In this document: in pieces, positions 1 through 8,390 of the stretch
Layout of the letters: the number at the start of each line of letters is the position of its first letter
Position numbering within the stretch: position 1 is the first letter of the stretch
Source: a virus
Taxonomy: Duplodnaviria > Heunggongvirae > Uroviricota > Caudoviricetes
Strand: one strand, 5' to 3'
IMG/VR virus record: IMGVR_UViG_2713896789_000020
DNA: 16,256 nt
Translations under genes and position numbers: made by a program
Notes under the pieces: generated by a model
Database searches by the model: none
Seen by the model: only the letters and a program-made list of their open reading frames with translations
What the model was told of the DNA's origin: nothing

Positions 1-1284
1 TTACTTCTTCGCCTCTGCAACCACTTTACTACCCACGCCGCGGTTATTGTATTCCCACATGCGGTTGTAGTTAGTGTCATTCAGATTGCGCTGTATTTCG
101 TCGTTATCATCTACGCTGCCGGTATTACCCGCAAACGGACGATTAGAGATCACCGCATCGGCCCACGGTTTAGCCGTGTTAAAACCTTCGTTGATGGCGC
201 TATCACGGATCACCACCTGACCGTTGGTATTGGCATCAACATCCAGCGAGCGGCCCAGTTGCGCCACACCATCACCGAAAGCATTGAAACGGCTGTTTAC
301 GGCGAGGAAACCGTAGTAAATGTTGGACAGCGTAGCCGGTGCAAACACATACGCTTCTTGCTGAGTACGTGAGTTCACCACGCGGAATTCGGTGTTATCG
401 AACACCACTGCGCCGCGACCAGAAACGATATCCACATCCCCTTCAATGTAGCTGTTGGTCACCAGCGTACGCGGCTGACGATTTGTTTCCAGACGGTTCT
501 GCACACCGCTGTTGGTGACAAAGAAGGTGTTCTGACGACCGAGAATGTTAACGTTGTTAATCTGTACCTGGTCACCATCAGTACGCAGTGCCACCGCCGG
601 ATGGTTACCTGCATCTACGCTATCGCCCAGCGTGTTTTCGATGGTCAGATTTTGCAGTTGCAGGCCATTGTTTTGTGACCAGAAGACCGCAGAGCAGAGA
701 ACACCGATACTGTCGCTGCGTTTGCTCTGGCAGCTATCGTACATATACCACGCTGGTTTACCTGGCATATATTTGCCGCGCGGGTTGACGTCGTGACGCC
801 AGTCGGCAGGGCTCATGCCACCATCAAGGGAAAGCCCAATCTTCACATCAATCGGTTTTTCACCTGTACCGTACAGAGTAATTCCACCCGGAGCGGCAGG
901 GACATATACCGTTCCCTGATACTCACCAGGCATCACGGCAATATACTGGCGCTTGTTGGTACGCTTGATAATTGCCGCATCTACCGCCGCCTGAATCGTG
1001 GTATGCGTTACACCTTGAGTGCCCGCCGGGCCGACAACAAAGTCAGGTTGCGCAGGCAGGGTAATCGGGGAAGGATTCCACGCTGCAGCACCTGGTGTCA
1101 GGGATGCAAAATAGTGTTGAGCATCGAAATTCTGCGCTTCTTTTGCCGACAGAATCGGGCGAGAAGAGGTACCAGGCGCGGTTTGATCAGAAGGACGTTG
1201 ATCGGGCGGGGTTGAGCTACAGGCGGTCAGCGTCACGCCAAAAGCCAATGCCAGCGCCAGACGGGAAACTGAAAATGTGTTCAC
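1..1284 (-). CDS. ybhC: YbhC-like outer-membrane lipoprotein (pectinesterase / carbohydrate-esterase family); host gene flanking attB-lambda
   Basis: Complete 427-aa ORF with lipoprotein-type signal peptide (…LTACSS); recognised from the translation as the E. coli gene adjacent to the lambda attachment site; identity from recall, not searched. Confidence 0.85.
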   Translation of the reverse strand: MNTFSVSRLALALAFGVTLTACSSTPPDQRPSDQTAPGTSSRPILSAKEAQNFDAQHYFASLTPGAAAWNPSPITLPAQPDFVVGPAGTQGVTHTTIQAAVDAAIIKRTNKRQYIAVMPGEYQGTVYVPAAPGGITLYGTGEKPIDVKIGLSLDGGMSPADWRHDVNPRGKYMPGKPAWYMYDSCQSKRSDSIGVLCSAVFWSQNNGLQLQNLTIENTLGDSVDAGNHPAVALRTDGDQVQINNVNILGRQNTFFVTNSGVQNRLETNRQPRTLVTNSYIEGDVDIVSGRGAVVFDNTEFRVVNSRTQQEAYVFAPATLSNIYYGFLAVNSRFNAFGDGVAQLGRSLDVDANTNGQVVIRDSAINEGFNTAKPWADAVISNRPFAGNTGSVDDNDEIQRNLNDTNYNRMWEYNNRGVGSKVVAEAKK

Positions 1285-1322: not shown

Positions 1323-1425
1323 TGAAGCCTGCTTTTTTATACTAAGTTGGCATTATAAAAAAGCATTGCTTATCAATTTGTTGCAACGAACAGGTCACTA
1401 TCAGTCAAAATAAAATCATTATTTG
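1323..1425. other. attL: attL (B-O-P'): lambda att core GCTTTTTTATACTAA at 1331-1345, followed by P' arm with IHF-like site (about 1366-1378, tatcaatttgttg) and three arm-type Int sites (about 1392-1421, aggtcactat / cagtcaaaat / aaaatcatta)
   Basis: Exact 15-bp lambda core seen directly; downstream arm matches lambda P' arm as recalled; int stop codon lies inside the P' arm as in lambda. Confidence 0.88.
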
Positions 1426-2489
1426 ATTTCAATTTTGTCCCACTCCCTGCCTCTGTCATCACGATACTGTGATGCCATGGTGTCCGACTTATGCCCGAGA
1501 AGATGTTGAGCAAATTTATCGCTTATCTGCTTCTCATAGAGTCTTGCAGACAAACTGCGCAACTCGTGAAAGGTTGGCGGATCCCCTTCGAAGGAGAGAC
1601 CTGATGCTTTTCGTGCGCGCATAAAATACCTTGATACTGTGCCGGATGAAAGCGGTTCACGACGAGTAGATGCAATTATGGTTTCTCCGCCAAGAATCTT
1701 TTTGCATTTATCAAGTGTTTCCTTCATTGATATCCCGAGAGCATCAACATGCAATGTTGTTGGGATGGCAATTTTTACGCCTGTTTTGCTTTGCTCGACA
1801 TAAAGATATCCATCTACGATATCAGACCACTTCATTTCGCATAAATCACCAACTCGCTGCCCGGTAACAACAGCCAGTTCCATTGCAAGTCTAAGCCAAC
1901 ATGGTGATGATTCTGCTGCTTGATAAATTTTCAGGTATTCGTCAGCCGTAAGTCTTGATCTCCTTACCTCTGATTTTGCAGCGCGAGTGGCTGCGACCGG
2001 GTTTGTTGTTATATGGCCTTCAGCCATAGCCTCTCGGAATGCATCGCTCAGTGTTGATCTGATTAACTTGGCTGATGCCGCCTTTCCCTCGTCTATGTAT
2101 CCATTGAGCATTGCCGCAATTTCTTTTGTGGTGATGTCTTCAAGTGGAGCATCAGGCAGACCCCTCCTTATTGCTTTAATTTTGCTCATGTAATTTATGA
2201 GTGTCTTCTGCTTGATTCCTCTGCTGGCCAGGATTTTTTCGTAGCGATCAAGCCATGAATGTAACGTAACGGAATTATCACTGTTGATTCTCGCTGTCAG
2301 AGGCTTGTGTTTGTGTCCTGAAAATAACTCAATGTTGGCCTGTATAGCTTCAGTGATTGCGATTCGCCTGTCTCGGCCTAATCCAAACTCTTTACCCGTC
2401 CTTGGGTCCCTGTAGCAGTAATATCCATTGTTTCTTATATAAAGGTTAGGGGGTAAATCCCGGCGCTCATGACTTCGCCTTCTTCCCAT
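1419..2489 (-). CDS. int: Lambda integrase (tyrosine recombinase)
   Basis: 356-aa ORF; translation matches lambda Int essentially along its length (MGRRRSHERRDLPPNLYIRNNGYYCYRDPRTGKEFGLGRD…, C-terminal …HLLGHKSDTMASQYRDDRGREWDKIEIK). Confidence 0.97.
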   Translation of the reverse strand: MGRRRSHERRDLPPNLYIRNNGYYCYRDPRTGKEFGLGRDRRIAITEAIQANIELFSGHKHKPLTARINSDNSVTLHSWLDRYEKILASRGIKQKTLINYMSKIKAIRRGLPDAPLEDITTKEIAAMLNGYIDEGKAASAKLIRSTLSDAFREAMAEGHITTNPVAATRAAKSEVRRSRLTADEYLKIYQAAESSPCWLRLAMELAVVTGQRVGDLCEMKWSDIVDGYLYVEQSKTGVKIAIPTTLHVDALGISMKETLDKCKKILGGETIIASTRREPLSSGTVSRYFMRARKASGLSFEGDPPTFHELRSLSARLYEKQISDKFAQHLLGHKSDTMASQYRDDRGREWDKIEIK

Positions 2490-2685
2490 TTCTGATCCTC
2501 TTCAAAAGGCTACCTGTTACTGGTCGATTTAAGTCAACCTTTACCGCTGATTCGTGGAACAGATATTCTCTTCCATCCTTAACCGGAGGAGGGAATATCC
2601 TGCATTCGCGCACCCATCGACGAACTGTTTCAAGGCTTCTTGGGCGTCGCTGGCGAGCGTTCCACTCCTGAAGTGTCAAGTACAT
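2467..2685 (-). CDS. xis: Lambda excisionase
   Basis: 72-aa ORF MYLTLQEWNARQRRPRSLETVRRWV… matching lambda Xis; 3' end overlaps int start as in lambda. Confidence 0.95.
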   Translation of the reverse strand: MYLTLQEWNARQRRPRSLETVRRWVRECRIFPPPVKDGREYLFHESAVKVDLNRPVTGSLLKRIRNGKKAKS

Positions 2686-2712
2686 CGCAAAGTCTCCGCA
2701 ATTACACGCAAG

Positions 2713-2732
2713 AAAAAACCGCCATCAGGCGG
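2713..2732 (-). terminator. Putative intrinsic terminator (minus strand): stem ccgcc/ggcgg with 4-nt loop, followed on the minus strand by a U6 run
   Basis: Plus-strand sequence agaaaaaaccgccatcaggcggc; hairpin plus T-run read directly; overlaps the stop codon of the 55-aa ORF. Confidence 0.45.
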
Positions 2733-2892
2733 CTTGGTGTTCTTTCAGTTCTTCAATTCGAATATTGGTTATGTCTGCATGTGCTATCTGCGCCCATATC
2801 ATCCAGTGGTCATAGCAGTCATTGATGTTCTCTGCTTCGATAACTCTGTTGAATGGTTCTCCATTCCATTCACCTGTGACTCGGAAGTGCAT
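2725..2892 (-). CDS. Small hypothetical protein (55 aa, MHFRVTGEWNGEPFNRVIEAENINDCYDHW…), lambda xis-adjacent orf55-like
   Basis: Own translation of the minus strand; ATG at 2892, stop at 2725-2727; region matches the lambda sequence as recalled up to about position 2936, where homology ends. Confidence 0.55.
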   Translation of the reverse strand: MHFRVTGEWNGEPFNRVIEAENINDCYDHWMIWAQIAHADITNIRIEELKEHQAA

Positions 2893-2974
2893 TTATCATC
2901 TCCATAAAACAAAACTCGCCGTAGCGAGTTCAGATATAATTTCCACCAAAGGCAGTAGTTGCTGATGCTAAGAA

Positions 2975-3403
2975 TTATTCAATATCTATTCCTGTAATAT
3001 CTTTTATCTTTTTCCTTGCAAAGCCTTTTGCTAGTGATTTTGAAACACTTATTAGTGTACTAATTCCCTCATCCTTAAAGTTTGTTTTTATAGTTTGCCA
3101 GACCTCCTTTTGACGCAAGTCAGCAATAAAATCATGCCCTCTTGCTGTCAACCTCAGTGGTACTTCGATCCAACTATATCCAACACCTTCCCCTAACTCG
3201 TTGGACATTATATGACCGAACCCAGGTTTTCCATCAACCCTGACTATTAATTCGTAGTCGCATAATAATCGCATATGGAAAATAAAATTTTGGTCATATC
3301 TATTAAAGCCATTATCCTCTAGTTCACTAAGCATCGTGTCAGGGCCATGAGTTTTTTCGAATGCGATAAGTAGATCTTTTAGATATTGCTGGTCTAATTT
3401 CAT
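2975..3403 (-). CDS. Hypothetical cytoplasmic protein, 142 aa, no recognisable family; AT-rich cargo gene
   Basis: Complete ORF with GGAGG Shine-Dalgarno 5 nt upstream of ATG (3403); strongly AT-rich codon usage unlike flanking lambda genes; no signal peptide or TM segment evident. Confidence 0.7.
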   Translation of the reverse strand: MKLDQQYLKDLLIAFEKTHGPDTMLSELEDNGFNRYDQNFIFHMRLLCDYELIVRVDGKPGFGHIMSNELGEGVGYSWIEVPLRLTARGHDFIADLRQKEVWQTIKTNFKDEGISTLISVSKSLAKGFARKKIKDITGIDIE

Positions 3404-3431
3404 TGCCGCCTCCGTGACATGTCACAGAGAT

Positions 3432-3770
3432 TTATATCATTAATTTTGTTTCGTGCCAGCCTTTGGTCACCCAGCATTGTGAGTCACCATTACACGGGCA
3501 TGAATTAACAGGAACTCTCTCGCCGCACTTACCGCAACGTTTTCTGCTGATCGATTTTATACGCCAGCGCACACGTGCATCATCCTGGCGGCTCAGTAAC
3601 GCGATGTACTCACCAAACTCGTAAGGCGCATGCCTGAAGCGGCGCGTGGCTCAGTTACGATCCAGCATTTCAATTTCCTGAGCATCAAGTACAAGCTCCA
3701 GCTTACGCATACCGGATGATGCTTGCTTGGCTCTCTGATCGACTTTGCGCTCTGCTGATGATTTAGCCAT
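3432..3770 (-). pseudogene. Cys-rich small protein ORF interrupted by a single in-frame TGA (at 3651-3653): 39 codons, TGA, then 72 codons ending …RKRCGKCGERVPVNSCPCNGDSQCWVTKGWHETKLMI; either a nonsense-mutated gene (TGG to TGA) or UGA readthrough
   Basis: Reverse complement translated codon by codon: MAKSSAERKVDQRAKQASSGMRKLELVLDAQEIEMLDRN-TGA-ATRRFRHAPYEFGEYIALLSRQDDARVRWRIKSISRKRCGKCGE…; the frame stays open across the TGA for 72 codons. Confidence 0.45.
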
Positions 3771-3966
3771 TCTGCTTTTCCTGCATTAGGAGAAAGACAA
3801 TCATGGCGGCGCGGATACTTCCGGTATCTTTTTACTCGATATTACCCTTCAATGGCACATACAAGAAGAGAGCCATCAACAGGAGTGAGTGAGGAATCGA
3901 CAACCAGCAACGCTTAATTATCTATAGTGTCGTATTTGCTTCATAAAATATGGCGAATAACACAAA

Positions 3967-3998
3967 GCCCGCAGCAGCTCATTGTGCGGGCTTTTCTT
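3967..3998. terminator. Probable bidirectional intrinsic terminator: 7-bp GC-rich stem gcccgca/tgcgggc with 11-nt loop, T-run on plus strand and U-rich tail on minus strand; likely terminates the 204-aa gene
   Basis: Hairpin and flanking A/T runs read directly (aaagcccgcagcagctcattgtgcgggcttttctt). Confidence 0.5.
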
Positions 3999-4063
3999 AT
4001 ACATACTTCCTAGAGATAATTCTATGGAGGCATTAAATTAATACTGTCATTGGTAATATCATA

Positions 4064-4678
4064 TTATCTAAAAGTCTTTCCACTTTTAACGTTTAGGTAT
4101 ATTCTGTTCGACAACGTCATTCCTCCGCAATATGTGAAATAGATGTTTTTCCCCTTATTGCTTGATGCCATCCACCCTCCGATTTCCTTAAAGTCGCTTT
4201 CCGTGCAGACCCCTTCGTTTATTAACTTCCTAGCTGCCGAAGAAAACTCTTTTTTGTATATACGGTAGTCATCAGATCCTTTGATTAAAGTATCATCTCC
4301 GCTCGCATTTTCAGCAGGATCTGATGGCCTTTCACTGCTAAGATCACTAAGTTTAACCCATTCTGAAAACTTGCCATTGACGATTCCGTTTTTTCTTGTG
4401 CAGGATTTATTACCTTCTTTAATATATTCGCTTTCCCCTCCCACACATGAGGCTGAATATGGCTCAGTTATACGAACCCATTCACCTTTTTTTTCTAGAA
4501 AATCTACGCCTTCCCTGAAAAATAGTTTCCCAGCCACTCCACATTTACTTGAAGGGCAGGTATGTCTTTCCGTTCGATCAACAACAACCCAAAGTCTTGA
4601 TTCATTTTTTGCCATTGCCGATGGTATTTGAGATGAGACAATTAACGTAAGCCCTAAAATTAGTATTGATTTTTTCAT
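4064..4678 (-). CDS. Secreted/periplasmic hypothetical protein, 204 aa, with Sec signal peptide, 6 cysteines, and a possible SH3b-like N-terminal domain; AT-rich moron-like gene
   Basis: N-terminus MKKSILILGLTLIVSSQIPSAMA- is a typical signal peptide; AAGGA Shine-Dalgarno 8 nt upstream; segment RLWVVVDRTERHTCPSSKCGVAGKLFFREGVDFLEKKGEWVRI resembles bacterial SH3 pattern (tentative). Confidence 0.75.
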   Translation of the reverse strand: MKKSILILGLTLIVSSQIPSAMAKNESRLWVVVDRTERHTCPSSKCGVAGKLFFREGVDFLEKKGEWVRITEPYSASCVGGESEYIKEGNKSCTRKNGIVNGKFSEWVKLSDLSSERPSDPAENASGDDTLIKGSDDYRIYKKEFSSAARKLINEGVCTESDFKEIGGWMASSNKGKNIYFTYCGGMTLSNRIYLNVKSGKTFR

Positions 4679-4976
4679 TGTAATTTCCTTTTACTTTTTA
4701 CAAAGCGTTTAATCATGGCTGATTATCTTTAAGCGTAGTAACAGCCTTGTGCGAAACATGTTACCAAATCGCCATTTCAGTGTATCCGCAGTTAGGCTGC
4801 CACTTCAAGGATTCCTAATTACATGGTACGTAAGCGTAAAATCCCGTTGGTTGTCGGGTAATAACTCTGATCAAATCTCCCTTGTCTTTTGCTCTTACGT
4901 ATGCAGCTCTTGTGTATTCAACCCAGGCCTCCAGTTCAGCAATACGCTTACTTCCATCCGAGATAACACCTTCTAC

Positions 4977-5228
4977 TCACGCTGCTCGTTGAGTTTTGAT
5001 TTTTGCTGTCTCCAGCTCAACACGCAGTTTCCTCACCGTTAGCGCAATATCCTCGTTCTCCTGGTCGCGGCGTTTGATGTACTGCTGGTTTCTTTCCCGT
5101 TCATCCAGCAGTGTCAGCACAATCGATGGTGTTACCAGCTCATGGAAAAGGTCCGCGTCAAATCCCCAGTTGTCATGCATTGCCTGCTCTGCCGCTTCAC
5201 GCAGTGCCTGAGAGTGAATTACGCTCAC
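4977..5228 (-). CDS. Lambda Ea22-like protein, N-terminal coiled-coil part (83 aa to the first stop); frame continues past an in-frame TGA for 53 more codons to 4818
   Basis: MSVIHSQALREAAEQAMHDNWGFDADLFHELVTPSIVLTLLDERERNQQYIKRRDQENEDIALTVRKLRVELETAK… closely resembles lambda ea22 as recalled; after TGA (4977-4979) the same frame reads VEGVISDGSKRIAELEAW…. Confidence 0.6.
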   Translation of the reverse strand: MSVIHSQALREAAEQAMHDNWGFDADLFHELVTPSIVLTLLDERERNQQYIKRRDQENEDIALTVRKLRVELETAKIKTQRAA

Positions 5229-5382
5229 TTCGAACCTCTCTGTTTACTGATAAGTTCCAGATCCTCCTGGCAACTTGCACAAGTCCGACAACCCTGAACG
5301 GCCAGGCGTCTTCGTTCATCTATNNNNNNNNNNNNNNNNNNNNNNNNNNNNNNNNNNNNNNNNNNNNNNNNNNNNNNNNNNN
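5225..5382 (-). CDS. TraR/DksA-type C4 zinc-finger protein (lambda orf73-like); 5' part hidden by the N-run, so the start is undefined
   Basis: C-terminal readable portion …IDERRRLAVQGCRTCASCQEDLELISKQRGSK carries the second CxxC of a TraR-like zinc finger; upstream part masked by Ns at 5324-5382. Confidence 0.6.
5324..5382. other. Run of 59 N (masked or unresolved assembly gap)
   Basis: Literal n characters in the sequence. Confidence 1.
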
Positions 5383-5420
5383 TGAATTGTTGGTTAATAC
5401 GCTTGAGGGTGAATGCGAAT

Positions 5421-5444
5421 AATAAAAAAGGAGCCTGTAGCTCC
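5421..5444 (-). terminator. Putative intrinsic terminator (minus strand): stem ggagc/gctcc with 5-nt loop, followed on the minus strand by a U-run
   Basis: Plus-strand aataaaaaaggagcctgtagctcc read directly; lies between the 71-aa ORF and the TraR-like gene. Confidence 0.45.
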
Positions 5445-5466
5445 CTGATGATTTTGCTTTTCATGT

Positions 5467-5682
5467 TCACCGTTCCTTAAAAACGCCGTTTAACATGCCG
5501 ATTGCTAGACTTAAATGAGTCGGTGTGAATCCCATCAGCGTTACCGTTTCGCGGTGCTTCTTCAGTACGCTACGGCAAATGTCATCGACGTTTTTATCCG
5601 GAAACTGCTGTCTGGCTTTTTTGATTTCAGAATTAGCCTGACGGGCAATGCTGCGAAGGGCGTTTTCCTGCTGAGGTGTCAC
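5467..5682 (-). CDS. Small hypothetical protein of the lambda early-left cluster (71 aa from GTG; VTPQQENALRSIARQANSEIKKARQQFPDKNVDDICRSVLKKH…)
   Basis: ORF open from 5748, but the first 22 codons overlap the upstream 27-aa ORF; the GTG at 5682 overlaps that ORF's TGA stop (GTGA), suggesting the coupled start; lambda has ATG at the equivalent position as recalled. Confidence 0.5.
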   Translation of the reverse strand: MTPQQENALRSIARQANSEIKKARQQFPDKNVDDICRSVLKKHRETVTLMGFTPTHLSLAIGMLNGVFKER

Positions 5683-5762
5683 TGAACAAGCCCCATGTCG
5701 GCAAGCATAAGCACACAGAATATGAAGCCCGCTGCCAGAAAAATGCATTCAGTGGTTGTCAT
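5679..5762 (-). CDS. Candidate 27-aa hydrophobic micro-protein (MTTTECIFLAAGFIFCVLMLADMGLVQ), translationally coupled on both sides
   Basis: Its ATG overlaps the TGA of the upstream 63-aa gene (ATGA at 5759-5762) and its TGA overlaps the GTG of the downstream gene; one predicted TM-like segment; too short for the ORF track. Confidence 0.3.
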   Translation of the reverse strand: MTTTECIFLAAGFIFCVLMLADMGLVQ

Positions 5763-5950
5763 ACCTGGTCTCTCTCATCTGCTTCTGCTTTCGCCACCAT
5801 CATTTCCAGTTTTTGTGAAAGGGATGTGGCTAACGTATGAAATTCTTCGTCTGTTTCTACTGGTATTGGCACAAACCTGATTCCAATTTGAGCAAGGCTA
5901 TGTGCCATCTCGATACTCGTTCTTAACTCAACAGGAGATGCTTTGTGCAT
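5759..5950 (-). CDS. Small hypothetical protein, 63 aa (lambda orf63-like)
   Basis: Complete [66 protein letters not shown]; same position and length as lambda orf63. Confidence 0.6.
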   Translation of the reverse strand: MHKASPVELRTSIEMAHSLAQIGIRFVPIPVETDEEFHTLATSLSQKLEMMVAKAEADERDQV

Positions 5951-6105
5951 ACAGCCCCTCGTTTATTATTTATCTCCTCAGCCAGCCGCTGTGCTTTCAG
6001 TGGATTTCGGATAACAGAAAGGCCGGGAAATACCCAGCCTCGCTTTGTAACGGAGTAGACGAAAGTGATTGCGCCTACCCGGATATTATCGTGAGGATGC
6101 GTCAT
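5923..6105 (-). CDS. Small hypothetical protein, 60 aa (lambda orf60a-like), start overlapping exo stop
   Basis: [29 protein letters not shown]…; ATG at 6105 immediately follows the exo stop (6102-6104). Confidence 0.55.
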
Positions 6106-6743
6106 CGCCATTGCTCCCCAAATACAAAACCAATTTCAGCCAGTGCCTCGTCCATTTTTTCGATGAACACCGGCACCATCTCGTCAAAACTCGCCATGTA
6201 CTTTTCATCCCGCTCAACCACGACATAATGCAGTCCTTCACGCTTCATACGCGGGTCATAGTTGGCAAAGTACCAGGCATCTTTTCGTGTCACCCACATG
6301 CTGTACTGCACCTGGGCCATGTAAGCCGACTTTATGGCCTCGAAACCACCGAGCCGGAACTTCATGAAATCCCGGGAGGTAAACGGGCATTTCAGCTCAA
6401 GGCCATTGCCGTCACTGCATAAACCATCGGGAGAGCAGGCGGTGCGCATACTTTCGTCGCGATAGATGATCGGGGATTCAGTAACATTCACGCCGGAAGT
6501 GAATTCAAACAGGGTTCTGGCGTCGTTCTCGTACTGTTTTCCCCATGCCAGCGCCTTAGCATTAACTTCCGGAGCCACACCGGTGCAAACCTCAGCCAGC
6601 AGGGTGTGGAAGTAGGACATTTTCATGTCAGGCCACTTCTTTCCTGAGCGGGGCTTGGCTATCACGTTGTGAACTTCTGAAGCGGTGATGACGCCGAGCC
6701 GTAATTTGTGCCATGCATCATCCCCCTGTTCGACAGCTCTCAC
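6102..6743 (-). CDS. exo: Lambda exonuclease (Red-alpha), 5'-truncated: lacks the native first ~13 codons and ATG; the frame upstream reads …NHPICVT before a stop, resembling a Bet fragment
   Basis: 213 aa from an internal GTG match lambda Exo from residue ~14 to the C-terminus (…GFVFGEQWR); in-frame stop at 6783-6785 upstream; no ATG. Confidence 0.9.
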
Positions 6744-6932
6744 GTCGATCCCGGTAACGCAGATCGGATGATTACCGGTTCGCTACCAGGGAAGAACGGG
6801 AAGGAAAGGTGAGCACGAATCTGATTTTCAAGGAGTGTCGCCAGAGTGCCGCGATGAAGCGGGTGTTGGCATTTTATCGCGGCAATTTTCAATAGACTAT
6901 GTACATAAAAATATCATTTTTTTAATACATGT

Positions 6933-7380: not shown

Positions 7381-7941
7381 ATGAAGAAGATAATATTATT
7401 AGCCATGATTATTGGTTCTTTAACAGGTTGCGCTAGTGTGCCACCATTGAATTTTTCAACACCTAACGTGGGAGTTAGCCAGAAAAAAATAGATGCTGAA
7501 ATTAAGTCATTAACGGTATCACTTGCTCGTCCAGATGAGCAGAAAGGGGATATCACTGCTGGTATGGAGGCTATAACTCCAATTTGGCGTGAATCTTTGC
7601 AGGAAGCACTCGACCGAATGACTATTTTTCGTGATAGTTCACCAAATACGGTTAGCTTAAATGTTAAAGTGTTGGCTCTTGACGTTCCTGCTTTTGGTGT
7701 TTCAATGACAACTAAAGCAATTGCAAGGTATGAAATAATCAACCGTGCGAATGGTGATATTATATATACGCAGGATATTGAGTCTACCGGTACTGTTCCA
7801 GCCAGTTACGCATTCTACGGTATTGTTCGAGCACGCGAATCTGTTAATCGCGCGGTGCAAAACAACATAACGCAGTTCTTGCAAGCATTAGAAAGTGTTG
7901 ATCTTTCTCGTCCAATGTTTCCTGTTAGGGTAGCTAAATGA
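7381..7941 (+). CDS. Lipoprotein of unknown function, 186 aa (lipobox LTGC)
   Basis: MKKIILLAMIIGSLTGCASV… signal peptide plus lipobox; AAGGT Shine-Dalgarno; stop overlaps the next gene start (ATGA at 7938-7941); AT-rich. Confidence 0.8.
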   Translation: MKKIILLAMIIGSLTGCASVPPLNFSTPNVGVSQKKIDAEIKSLTVSLARPDEQKGDITAGMEAITPIWRESLQEALDRMTIFRDSSPNTVSLNVKVLALDVPAFGVSMTTKAIARYEIINRANGDIIYTQDIESTGTVPASYAFYGIVRARESVNRAVQNNITQFLQALESVDLSRPMFPVRVAK

Positions 7942-8390
7942 AGCGATTATTCGTAATTGCTCCACTCTTAGTGTTGGTTGGATGCGCACAAAATATATCG
8001 CCAAATAGTTATTCTGTTGGCTCTGTGGGCATGGTTAATCGAACTATCGCTGGTACAGTTATTAGTGCTAGGGGGGTTGATATCAGTGGGACTTCCGCGT
8101 TAGGCGGGACTGCTGGGGCTGCCGTGGGGGCAACCGCTGGTTCTGCGCTTGGTGGGGGAGTTCGTTCTAATATCGTTGGTGCCGTTGGTGGTGCAGTCAT
8201 TGGTGGTATTGCCGGGGCAGCAATCGAATCTTCAGCAACAAAACAAACAGGCATGGAATATGTTGTCGAAACTGAGAATGGGAATTTAATGACCATTGTT
8301 CAAGGCAAAGATCCGTTATTTACTCAAGGAAGTAAGGTCCTTGTTTTATACGGAAACCCTTCTCGCATAATAACAGACCCGCGTCACTAA
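7938..8390 (+). CDS. SlyB-like outer-membrane lipoprotein with glycine-zipper domain, 150 aa (lipobox LVGC)
   Basis: Signal peptide plus lipobox, then Gly/Ala zipper region (GGTAGAAVGATAGSALGGGVRSNIVGAVGGAVIGGIAGAAI) and a C-terminal module resembling SlyB/Pcp (…MEYVVETENGNLMTIVQGKDPLFTQGSKVLVLYGNPSRI); from recall of SlyB. Confidence 0.85.
   Translation: MKRLFVIAPLLVLVGCAQNISPNSYSVGSVGMVNRTIAGTVISARGVDISGTSALGGTAGAAVGATAGSALGGGVRSNIVGAVGGAVIGGIAGAAIESSATKQTGMEYVVETENGNLMTIVQGKDPLFTQGSKVLVLYGNPSRIITDPRH

Follow-up and report, generated by a model that had tools for sequence, protein, structure and literature searches.

Mosaic replacement of ea8.5 and part of ea22 in a lambda-type prophage by a DUF2513 gene and a gene for a predicted exported protein

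The replacement segment and its junctions

The 16,256-nucleotide stretch IMGVR_UViG_2713896789_000020 (hereafter the window) is a piece of Escherichia coli chromosome that contains part of a lambda-type prophage, and the subject of this analysis is a segment of that prophage, between orf55 and a remnant of ea22, in which the DNA is not that of lambda. In blastn comparisons with the lambda genome (NC_001416), the left flank, window 1331-2940, corresponded to lambda 27724-29333 at 97.9% identity and the right flank, window 4930-5323, to lambda 30094-30490 at 94.5%; between them, 1989 bp stand in place of the 760 bp of lambda 29334-30093 (ea8.5 and the 3' part of ea22). An original prediction, made from the letters of the window alone, had placed non-lambda cargo at 2937-4910, and alignment to lambda, which located the junctions nearly to the base (2940/4930), showed this to be nearly exact. 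The possibility that the segment is ordinary lambda ea8.5/ea22 sequence was ruled out by tblastn: Ea8.5 had no match in the insert at E <= 10, and of Ea22 residues 1-102 alone aligned (84%), the reading frame ending early, with no DNA or protein similarity beyond them.

The segment holds an intact open reading frame (ORF) of the DUF2513 family, ORF142; a zinc-ribbon gene of the phiV10 p55/epsilon15 gp49 type; a relic of a UmuD/HumD-like gene; and a second intact reading frame, ORF204, with a predicted exported product (Table 1). Three minus-strand ORFs with good ribosome-binding sites (RBS) and clearly lower GC content had been predicted here. ORF142 and ORF204 were indeed intact and preceded by such sites, but the third frame contains an in-frame TGA; likewise GC was low at 2941-3430 (0.380) and at 3914-4815 (0.382) but normal at 3431-3913 (0.487), compared with 0.445 and 0.495 in the lambda flanks. 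At third codon positions, GC was 0.31 in ORF142 and 0.33 in ORF204, against 0.41-0.61 for int, xis, the ea22 remnant and exo. The statement that no ORF matched a nameable family had to be given up, as ORF142 belongs to DUF2513 and phrog_585, the middle gene to phrog_536 and ORF204, with its predicted SH3b fold, to phrog_8310. Nor do three unrelated unknown genes make up a single unit here; the segment is a mosaic in which two independently mobile units stand beside a gene killed by a nonsense codon and the relic of another.

The scraps on either side of ORF204 have a recognisable source. The relic is 89% identical to UmuD of the P1-like phage PhiR41_1, its DNA also matches the umuD-like gene of phage D6, and RefSeq carries a partial 'DNA repair protein' at this position. 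On the other side, the ea22 remnant, which RefSeq marks as frameshifted or partial, is continued by a foreign tail, part of which resembles EaA of PhiR41_1 (46% over 54 amino acids in tblastn) and the DNA of which, at window 4847-4925, matches P1-like phages. In PhiR41_1 itself the order is EaA, a 174-amino-acid ORF and UmuD, which matches these two scraps. The whole segment is collinear with that of phage Chlobot at 98% identity, and 100% identical copies are present in many E. coli chromosomes. The insert was probably assembled by recombinational replacement, as a patchwork from two donor arrangements, and would then be mosaic cargo of the usual kind. Overall, we think it likely that this exo-xis replacement consists of a p55/DUF2513 unit and an ORF204 unit of the moron type; it is a well-delimited mosaic replacement and not a new type of system.

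Compared with the exo-xis region of lambda (orf60a, orf63, orf61, orf73, ea22 and ea8.5), the segment has the same location, strand and flanking genes and the same N-terminal 102 residues of Ea22, and differs in that ea8.5 and the C-terminal part of ea22 are replaced by the DUF2513 gene, the p55 pseudogene, the humD relic and the gene for an exported SH3b protein; the replacement genes have not been studied in the exo-xis literature that we found. Morons are autonomous promoter-gene-terminator units, such as lambda bor and lom (Cumby et al. 2012, PMC3594210). Like them, the cargo is absent from a collinear relative (lambda lacks the 1989 bp between flanks that are 94-98% identical), has a lower GC than its flanks in the ORF142 and ORF204 modules, though not at 3431-3913, shows for each intact gene a conserved block upstream and a hairpin downstream, and occurs in unrelated mobile elements. 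It differs from morons in that the promoters are putative and the terminator past ORF142 comes from the lambda backbone; ORF204 has a terminator-like hairpin of its own, the stem of which is kept in Escherichia fergusonii.

Table 1. Features of the window in and around the replacement segment.
Feature	Position	Strand	Basis or remark
int	1419-2489	minus	
xis	2467-2685	minus	
orf55 (55 codons)	2725-2892	minus	
Terminator-like hairpin and T-run, 44 nt past the ORF142 stop codon	2912-2931	minus	terminator scan
Non-lambda replacement segment, exo-xis region	2941-4929	minus	blastn against lambda
ORF142, DUF2513, intact; GC 0.36, isoelectric point 5.8	2975-3403	minus	RBS GGAGG
Putative regulatory block upstream of ORF142	3409-3459	minus	cross-genus conservation
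Zinc-ribbon gene of phiV10 p55/epsilon15 gp49 type, pseudogene, 112 codons	3432-3770	minus	RBS AGGAAA
UmuD/HumD-like relic, 37 codons (residues 46-82 of 129), in-frame stop	3803-3913	minus	tblastn
Intrinsic-terminator-like hairpin GCCCGCA...UGCGGGC with U-rich tail, past ORF204	3956-3994	minus	fold z = -2.8
ORF204, predicted exported, intact; GC 0.39	4064-4678	minus	RBS AAGGA
ORF204 leader, 142 nt	4679-4820	minus	conservation with E. fergusonii
Foreign Ea22/EaA-like 3' tail	4815-4976	minus	continues the ea22 frame past an in-frame TGA
Truncated ea22, 83 codons, Ead_Ea22 N-terminal part	4977-5228	minus	Pfam PF13935, 9e-20
TraR/DksA-like gene (lambda orf73 type)	ORF 5225-5470	minus	

The DUF2513 gene and its upstream block

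ORF142 matched the Pfam family DUF2513 (PF10711) with 42.9 bits (cut-off 29.6) over profile positions 1-100 of 100, and its 113 homologues span the Enterobacterales. In an AlphaFold2 model (predicted local distance difference test, pLDDT, 92) the protein consists of a helix, a winged helix-turn-helix and three C-terminal helices, and this predicted fold corresponds to that of the MarR/PadR regulators, in which a winged helix-turn-helix is flanked by dimerisation helices. It differs from those regulators in having no relation to them at the sequence level, no MarR or PadR family of Pfam being matched at E <= 1 and a profile search of the PDB sequences giving nothing relevant, and in being acidic; DNA binding by it is a prediction. 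Literature searches with DUF2513, PF10711, the WP accessions and Chlobot returned nothing relevant.

The gene is preceded by a compact block comprising a -35-like CTGGCA (3454-3459), a 17-nt spacer, a -10-like TATAAA (3431-3436) that overlaps the stop codon of the p55-type gene, a perfect 12-bp palindrome GTGACATGTCAC (3414-3425) and the RBS (3409-3413). Cronobacter, Enterobacter mori and Yersinia frederiksenii share the arrangement CTGGCA-17 nt-TATAAA-GTGACATGTCAC-GGAG, which is more strongly conserved than the coding flanks, and the block resembles a promoter whose start site is covered by an operator. In Cronobacter prophages, homologues of p55 (60%) and of the DUF2513 protein (61%) are encoded 27-28 nt apart, directly before the gene for the terminase small subunit, and the same adjacency can be read in E. 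mori and Y. frederiksenii. In the prophages of these three, which are not of the lambda type, the palindrome between the p55-type and DUF2513 genes reads (G)TGACATGTCA(C). In lambdoid prophages of Serratia, the gene upstream is unrelated, yet ~75 nt of the 3' end of p55, a TATAGT and the near-palindrome GTGACATCTCAC precede the DUF2513 gene. As the block is kept here without a p55 gene, the DUF2513 gene moves together with it. A second DUF2513 subfamily (~50% identity), found in the Klebsiella phage ST846-OXA48phi9.2 and at six further loci, has a different conserved upstream block, GGCATTCACTGAGTGCCTGTGATAATGCTA, which points to a different regulatory site in that subfamily.

The p55-type gene (phrog_536, 'transcriptional regulator') encodes a C-terminal four-cysteine ribbon, and its DNA is ~90% identical to that of phiV10-like phages; the intact Chlobot protein is 87% identical. 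It differs from its counterparts in phiV10 and epsilon15 in lying within a genome of lambda type and not at the end of one of epsilon15 type, and in being inactivated by nonsense: codon 40 (3651-3653), which is TGT in Chlobot and phiV10, is TGA in the window, and RefSeq lists a pseudogene with the note 'internal stop'. Strains BR1220 and A14 have the TGA allele too, as does a 43-kb circular element of strain SZQ1, diverged by ~3% and apparently a complete lambda-like genome, which lacks one of the ribbon cysteines as well. The intact allele is present in Chlobot and in at least 1000 contigs. Incorporation of selenocysteine at the TGA was ruled out, as the 67 nt downstream fold no better than shuffled sequences (z = +0.77), there is no Rfam match and the diverged copy has also lost a zinc-ribbon cysteine; with no structure resembling a selenocysteine insertion sequence past the TGA, this is a plain pseudogene, and because it is dead in this lineage the gene is dispensable here. 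A toxin-antitoxin pair of p55 and DUF2513 was likewise ruled out, since epsilon15-type phages have p55 without DUF2513 and the palindrome precedes the second gene only. The GenBank annotation of Chlobot breaks the p55-type gene into a 46-amino-acid 'transcriptional regulator' and an out-of-frame 105-amino-acid 'UmuD-like protein' (L002, 4534-5012); the correct gene lies at 4534-4872 of L002, on the minus strand.

ORF204, its leader and its terminator

The ORF204 product has a predicted Sec signal peptide, MKKSILILGLTLIVSSQIPSAMA, with cleavage past residue 23, between AMA and the following K. The rest of the protein comprises an SH3b-like domain with four conserved cysteines and an unclassified alpha/beta C-terminal domain with two. 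We found 81 homologues in the databases, of which those from Pseudomonas and Aeromonas are 60-68% identical and exactly 204 amino acids long; in several homologues a lipobox replaces the signal-peptidase I site, and all six cysteines are invariant or nearly so. An AlphaFold2 model (pLDDT 90) has two domains, the first of which is predicted to adopt the SH3b fold. It differs from the SH3b proteins of the endolysin and NlpC/P60 hydrolase type in that no catalytic domain is present, the partner being the unclassified C-terminal domain of 85 amino acids, and in a cysteine-rich insertion in the SH3b domain, which is missing from the most distant homologues.

The C-terminal domain has a distribution of its own. 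A profile of its 89 residues retrieved 532 clusters (defined at 50% identity) among 1.8 billion representatives, in proteins of 66-514 amino acids and always at the C-terminus. Often it is the only domain after a signal peptide or lipobox; elsewhere it follows an SH3b domain, ankyrin repeats, a zinc ribbon with a membrane segment, or HIRAN.

An 88%-identical copy of ORF204 lies after humD in a P1/P7-like element of E. fergusonii, with a different gene upstream, and the homology to it spans exactly window 4820-4062 together with the terminator stem. In this comparison the leader is ~88% identical, as against 71% at the third codon positions of ORF204. The leader contains weak promoter-like elements, TTGAAG (4803-4808) and TACACT (4779-4784), with an 18-nt spacer. 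No signal of RNA structure was obtained from it (fold z = -0.33), and a known RNA family or structured leader was rejected, the only Rfam match being a sub-threshold Thr_leader (E 0.76). Other homologues are found in other settings: an integrase precedes the gene in Pseudomonas monsensis, and a prophage of Aeromonas has it between antiterminator and lysis genes. In Pseudomonas the same 208-amino-acid ORF follows the ORF204 homologue in three contigs, with further small ORFs in the two longer ones. The P. monsensis locus (L004, 8001-12411) also encodes a KilA-N-like protein and forms a small integrase-bounded island that adjoins S-type pyocin genes.

Variability, origin and prophage setting of the segment

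Many lambdoid phages share the homology around orf55 up to about window 2936-2940, just past the terminator-like hairpin at 2912-2931, and then diverge; this hairpin belongs to the lambda-homologous backbone just ahead of the shared mosaic boundary and not to the insert. Past the boundary lambda carries ea8.5, phage 434 two plus-strand genes for membrane proteins, HK140 a 279-amino-acid ORF, mEp213 a DUF4752 gene and 933W genes of the ASCH and DUF551 families. The original prediction that this int-proximal slot is hypervariable is therefore borne out by these phages and others. The exo-xis region's genes are transcribed early from pL and influence the lysis-lysogeny decision; Shiga toxin (Stx) phages, in which the region is known to differ from that of lambda, lack Ea8.5, and the C-termini of Ea22 vary among phages (PMC7093339).

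Of 5426 complete E. coli genomes, 130 carried the full 2.1-kb block, 129-133 the ORF204 module and 167-185 the DUF2513 module; the one DUF2513-only genome inspected is explained by a deletion linked to the insertion sequence (IS) IS1. In ATCC 8739 and related strains, an IS1 copy also lies inside the ORF204 module. A search of 50,697 phage records placed ORF204 in Chlobot only, in the 46-kb genome of which the block is intact, and a DUF2513 relative of the ORF142 type in Chlobot and one Klebsiella phage only. The suggestion that the cassette varies as a unit thus holds essentially within E. coli, but outside this species the two genes travel apart. Against distant homologues, both intact ORFs showed a proportion of non-synonymous differences (pN) of 0.17-0.24, with synonymous differences (pS) saturated at ~0.84, and the ratio of non-synonymous to synonymous rates (dN/dS) between ORF204 and its Chlobot copy was 0.13. 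Lack of conservation and a neutral substitution pattern, which would have spoken against functional genes, were found for neither; judged by these substitutions ORF142 and ORF204 are real genes under purifying selection.

In the explanation that we favour, the first unit would be the p55-type gene plus the DUF2513 gene, the latter with its own promoter-like block, partly within the 3' end of p55, and with the palindrome over the likely transcription start; the winged-helix ORF142 product would be made from this promoter and, as a dimer on the palindrome, would repress it. The second, of moron type, would be ORF204 with its leader and terminator, lying between the EaA and HumD scraps. Its product would be exported by the Sec pathway, form three disulfides and be held at the peptidoglycan by the SH3b domain, and the C-terminal domain would act at the envelope. 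Its role is most likely to modify or protect the envelope of the lysogen, for instance in superinfection exclusion.

Several observations weigh against this explanation. ORF142 is acidic, which is unusual in a DNA-binding repressor. No minus-strand promoter passed a consensus scan, the proposed promoters matching 8-9 of 12 positions. The palindrome occurs once in the window, and a match to it within two mismatches was obtained in 87 of 200 shuffles; it is thus to be expected by chance, and its weight lies in the cross-genus conservation only. The SH3_3 family of Pfam (PF08239) scored 16.2 bits with ORF204, below the gathering cut-off of 27, and some homologues have a precomputed PF08239 match. 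For the C-terminal domain of ORF204 neither a Pfam family nor a structural analogue in the PDB was found, and any activity proposed for it is therefore a guess. Finally, dN/dS between ORF142 and its Chlobot copy was 0.68 (eight non-synonymous and three synonymous differences, several of them in the wing loop, which is poorly predicted), so close copies are under weak constraint.

It is also conceivable, though we consider it doubtful, that the genes are developmental modulators like Ea8.5, Ea22 and Orf63, read early from pL during infection or induction and tuning the lysis-lysogeny decision or int/xis, with the DUF2513 gene as a positional substitute for ea8.5. This would suit the exact ea8.5 position, the strand, which is that of the pL operon, and the Serratia prophages, where, counted back from int, the DUF2513 gene comes third in the early-left operon. 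Ea8.5, moreover, is a protein of homeodomain/zinc-finger fold that affects pI and paQ (PMC7093339), and for DUF2513 a winged-helix fold is predicted. However, the two proteins share no sequence similarity, and the DUF2513 gene has its own conserved promoter-like block and elsewhere adjoins terminase or lysis genes, so that it is not tied to int and xis; an exported ORF204 protein, in addition, would be ill-suited to a developmental switch at the level of transcription.

A locus for anti-phage defence or superinfection exclusion, in which ORF204 would block phages at the envelope or the DUF2513 protein would act on incoming phage DNA, seems to us unlikely. The int-proximal variable slot is a place where it might be sought, both genes look autonomous and a repressed or defective prophage could express them, neither has been broken in this prophage, from which pL to P and neighbouring genes have been lost, and ORF204 is predicted to be exported with a fold of the peptidoglycan-binding type. 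Against this, no product matched a PADLOC or NCBIfam model and a known defence system was rejected: in searches of PADLOC-DB 2.0, ORF142, ORF204 and the fragments had no match at E <= 1 and the intact p55-type protein none at E <= 0.01. Neither PHROG 585 nor 8310 has an annotated function, ORF204 in E. coli has no lipobox and no similarity to annotated exclusion proteins, and in Serratia and Cronobacter the DUF2513 gene stands last in an early operon and on its strand, as ordinary early genes of phages do. The host-interaction or anti-phage role in the original prediction thus gained no direct support, although it may apply to ORF204, with its predicted export to the envelope.

That the segment is non-functional debris, its ORFs open by chance or lately freed from selection, is most improbable: it would suit the defective prophage, the nonsense codon in the middle gene, the umuD and ea22 fragments, the IS1 copies in the region of some strains and the ORF142-Chlobot ratio given above, but both ORFs are full length with amino acids conserved across genera while synonymous sites are saturated, the block is intact in Chlobot and the upstream non-coding blocks are conserved, and these conservation data appear largely to refute it for ORF142 and ORF204.

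With the two-unit explanation, mosaic cargo and morons in lambdoid prophages are already known, and the sequences are in RefSeq as hypothetical proteins; what is added is the precise anatomy of a variant exo-xis region, a little-studied part of these genomes with an influence on the lysis-lysogeny decision in lambda and Stx phages. It provides testable leads in E. coli, for which the isolated phage Chlobot is available: a DUF2513 gene with a mobile promoter and palindrome block, and an exported SH3b protein with a widespread unclassified domain. These two conserved, uncharacterised accessory genes merit modest follow-up. A larger significance is improbable but may be imagined, in that ORF204 might belong, as its first tractable member, to an undescribed family of extracytoplasmic domains that mobile elements might use, anchored to peptidoglycan by SH3b, for phage exclusion or envelope protection, or the DUF2513 protein an autoregulated prophage winged-helix factor with targets beyond its own promoter.

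As to the surroundings, the window opens with ybhC (1-1284, minus strand), and the prophage, which adjoins it at attB-lambda, is entered at the att core, where window 1331 equals lambda 27724. The int, xis and orf55 genes are ~98% lambda. A third blastn match to lambda extends over window 5383-6756 (lambda 30628-32002), where homology stops within exo and a ren fragment comes next (deletion joint, window 6752-6900); everything from bet to P, with pL, N, cI and cro, is therefore missing, and the prophage is defective by an exo-to-ren deletion. At this joint strains A14 and BR1220 have a different, larger deletion. The right half of the prophage is DLP12-like (ybcN, ninE, rusA, quuD, porin, lysis genes and bor). 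Just past the ea22 remnant, part of the TraR/DksA-like gene is hidden by a run of 59 N at window 5324-5382. A second AT-rich pair of ORFs, overlapping on the plus strand (186 and 150 amino acids; local GC 0.33-0.41), separates the ren fragment from ybcN at window 7381-8390, both labelled hypothetical in RefSeq and without a Pfam or PADLOC match except for a weak glycine-zipper 2TM (3e-4) in the second. In other strains, the same prophage carries IS elements in int and xis.

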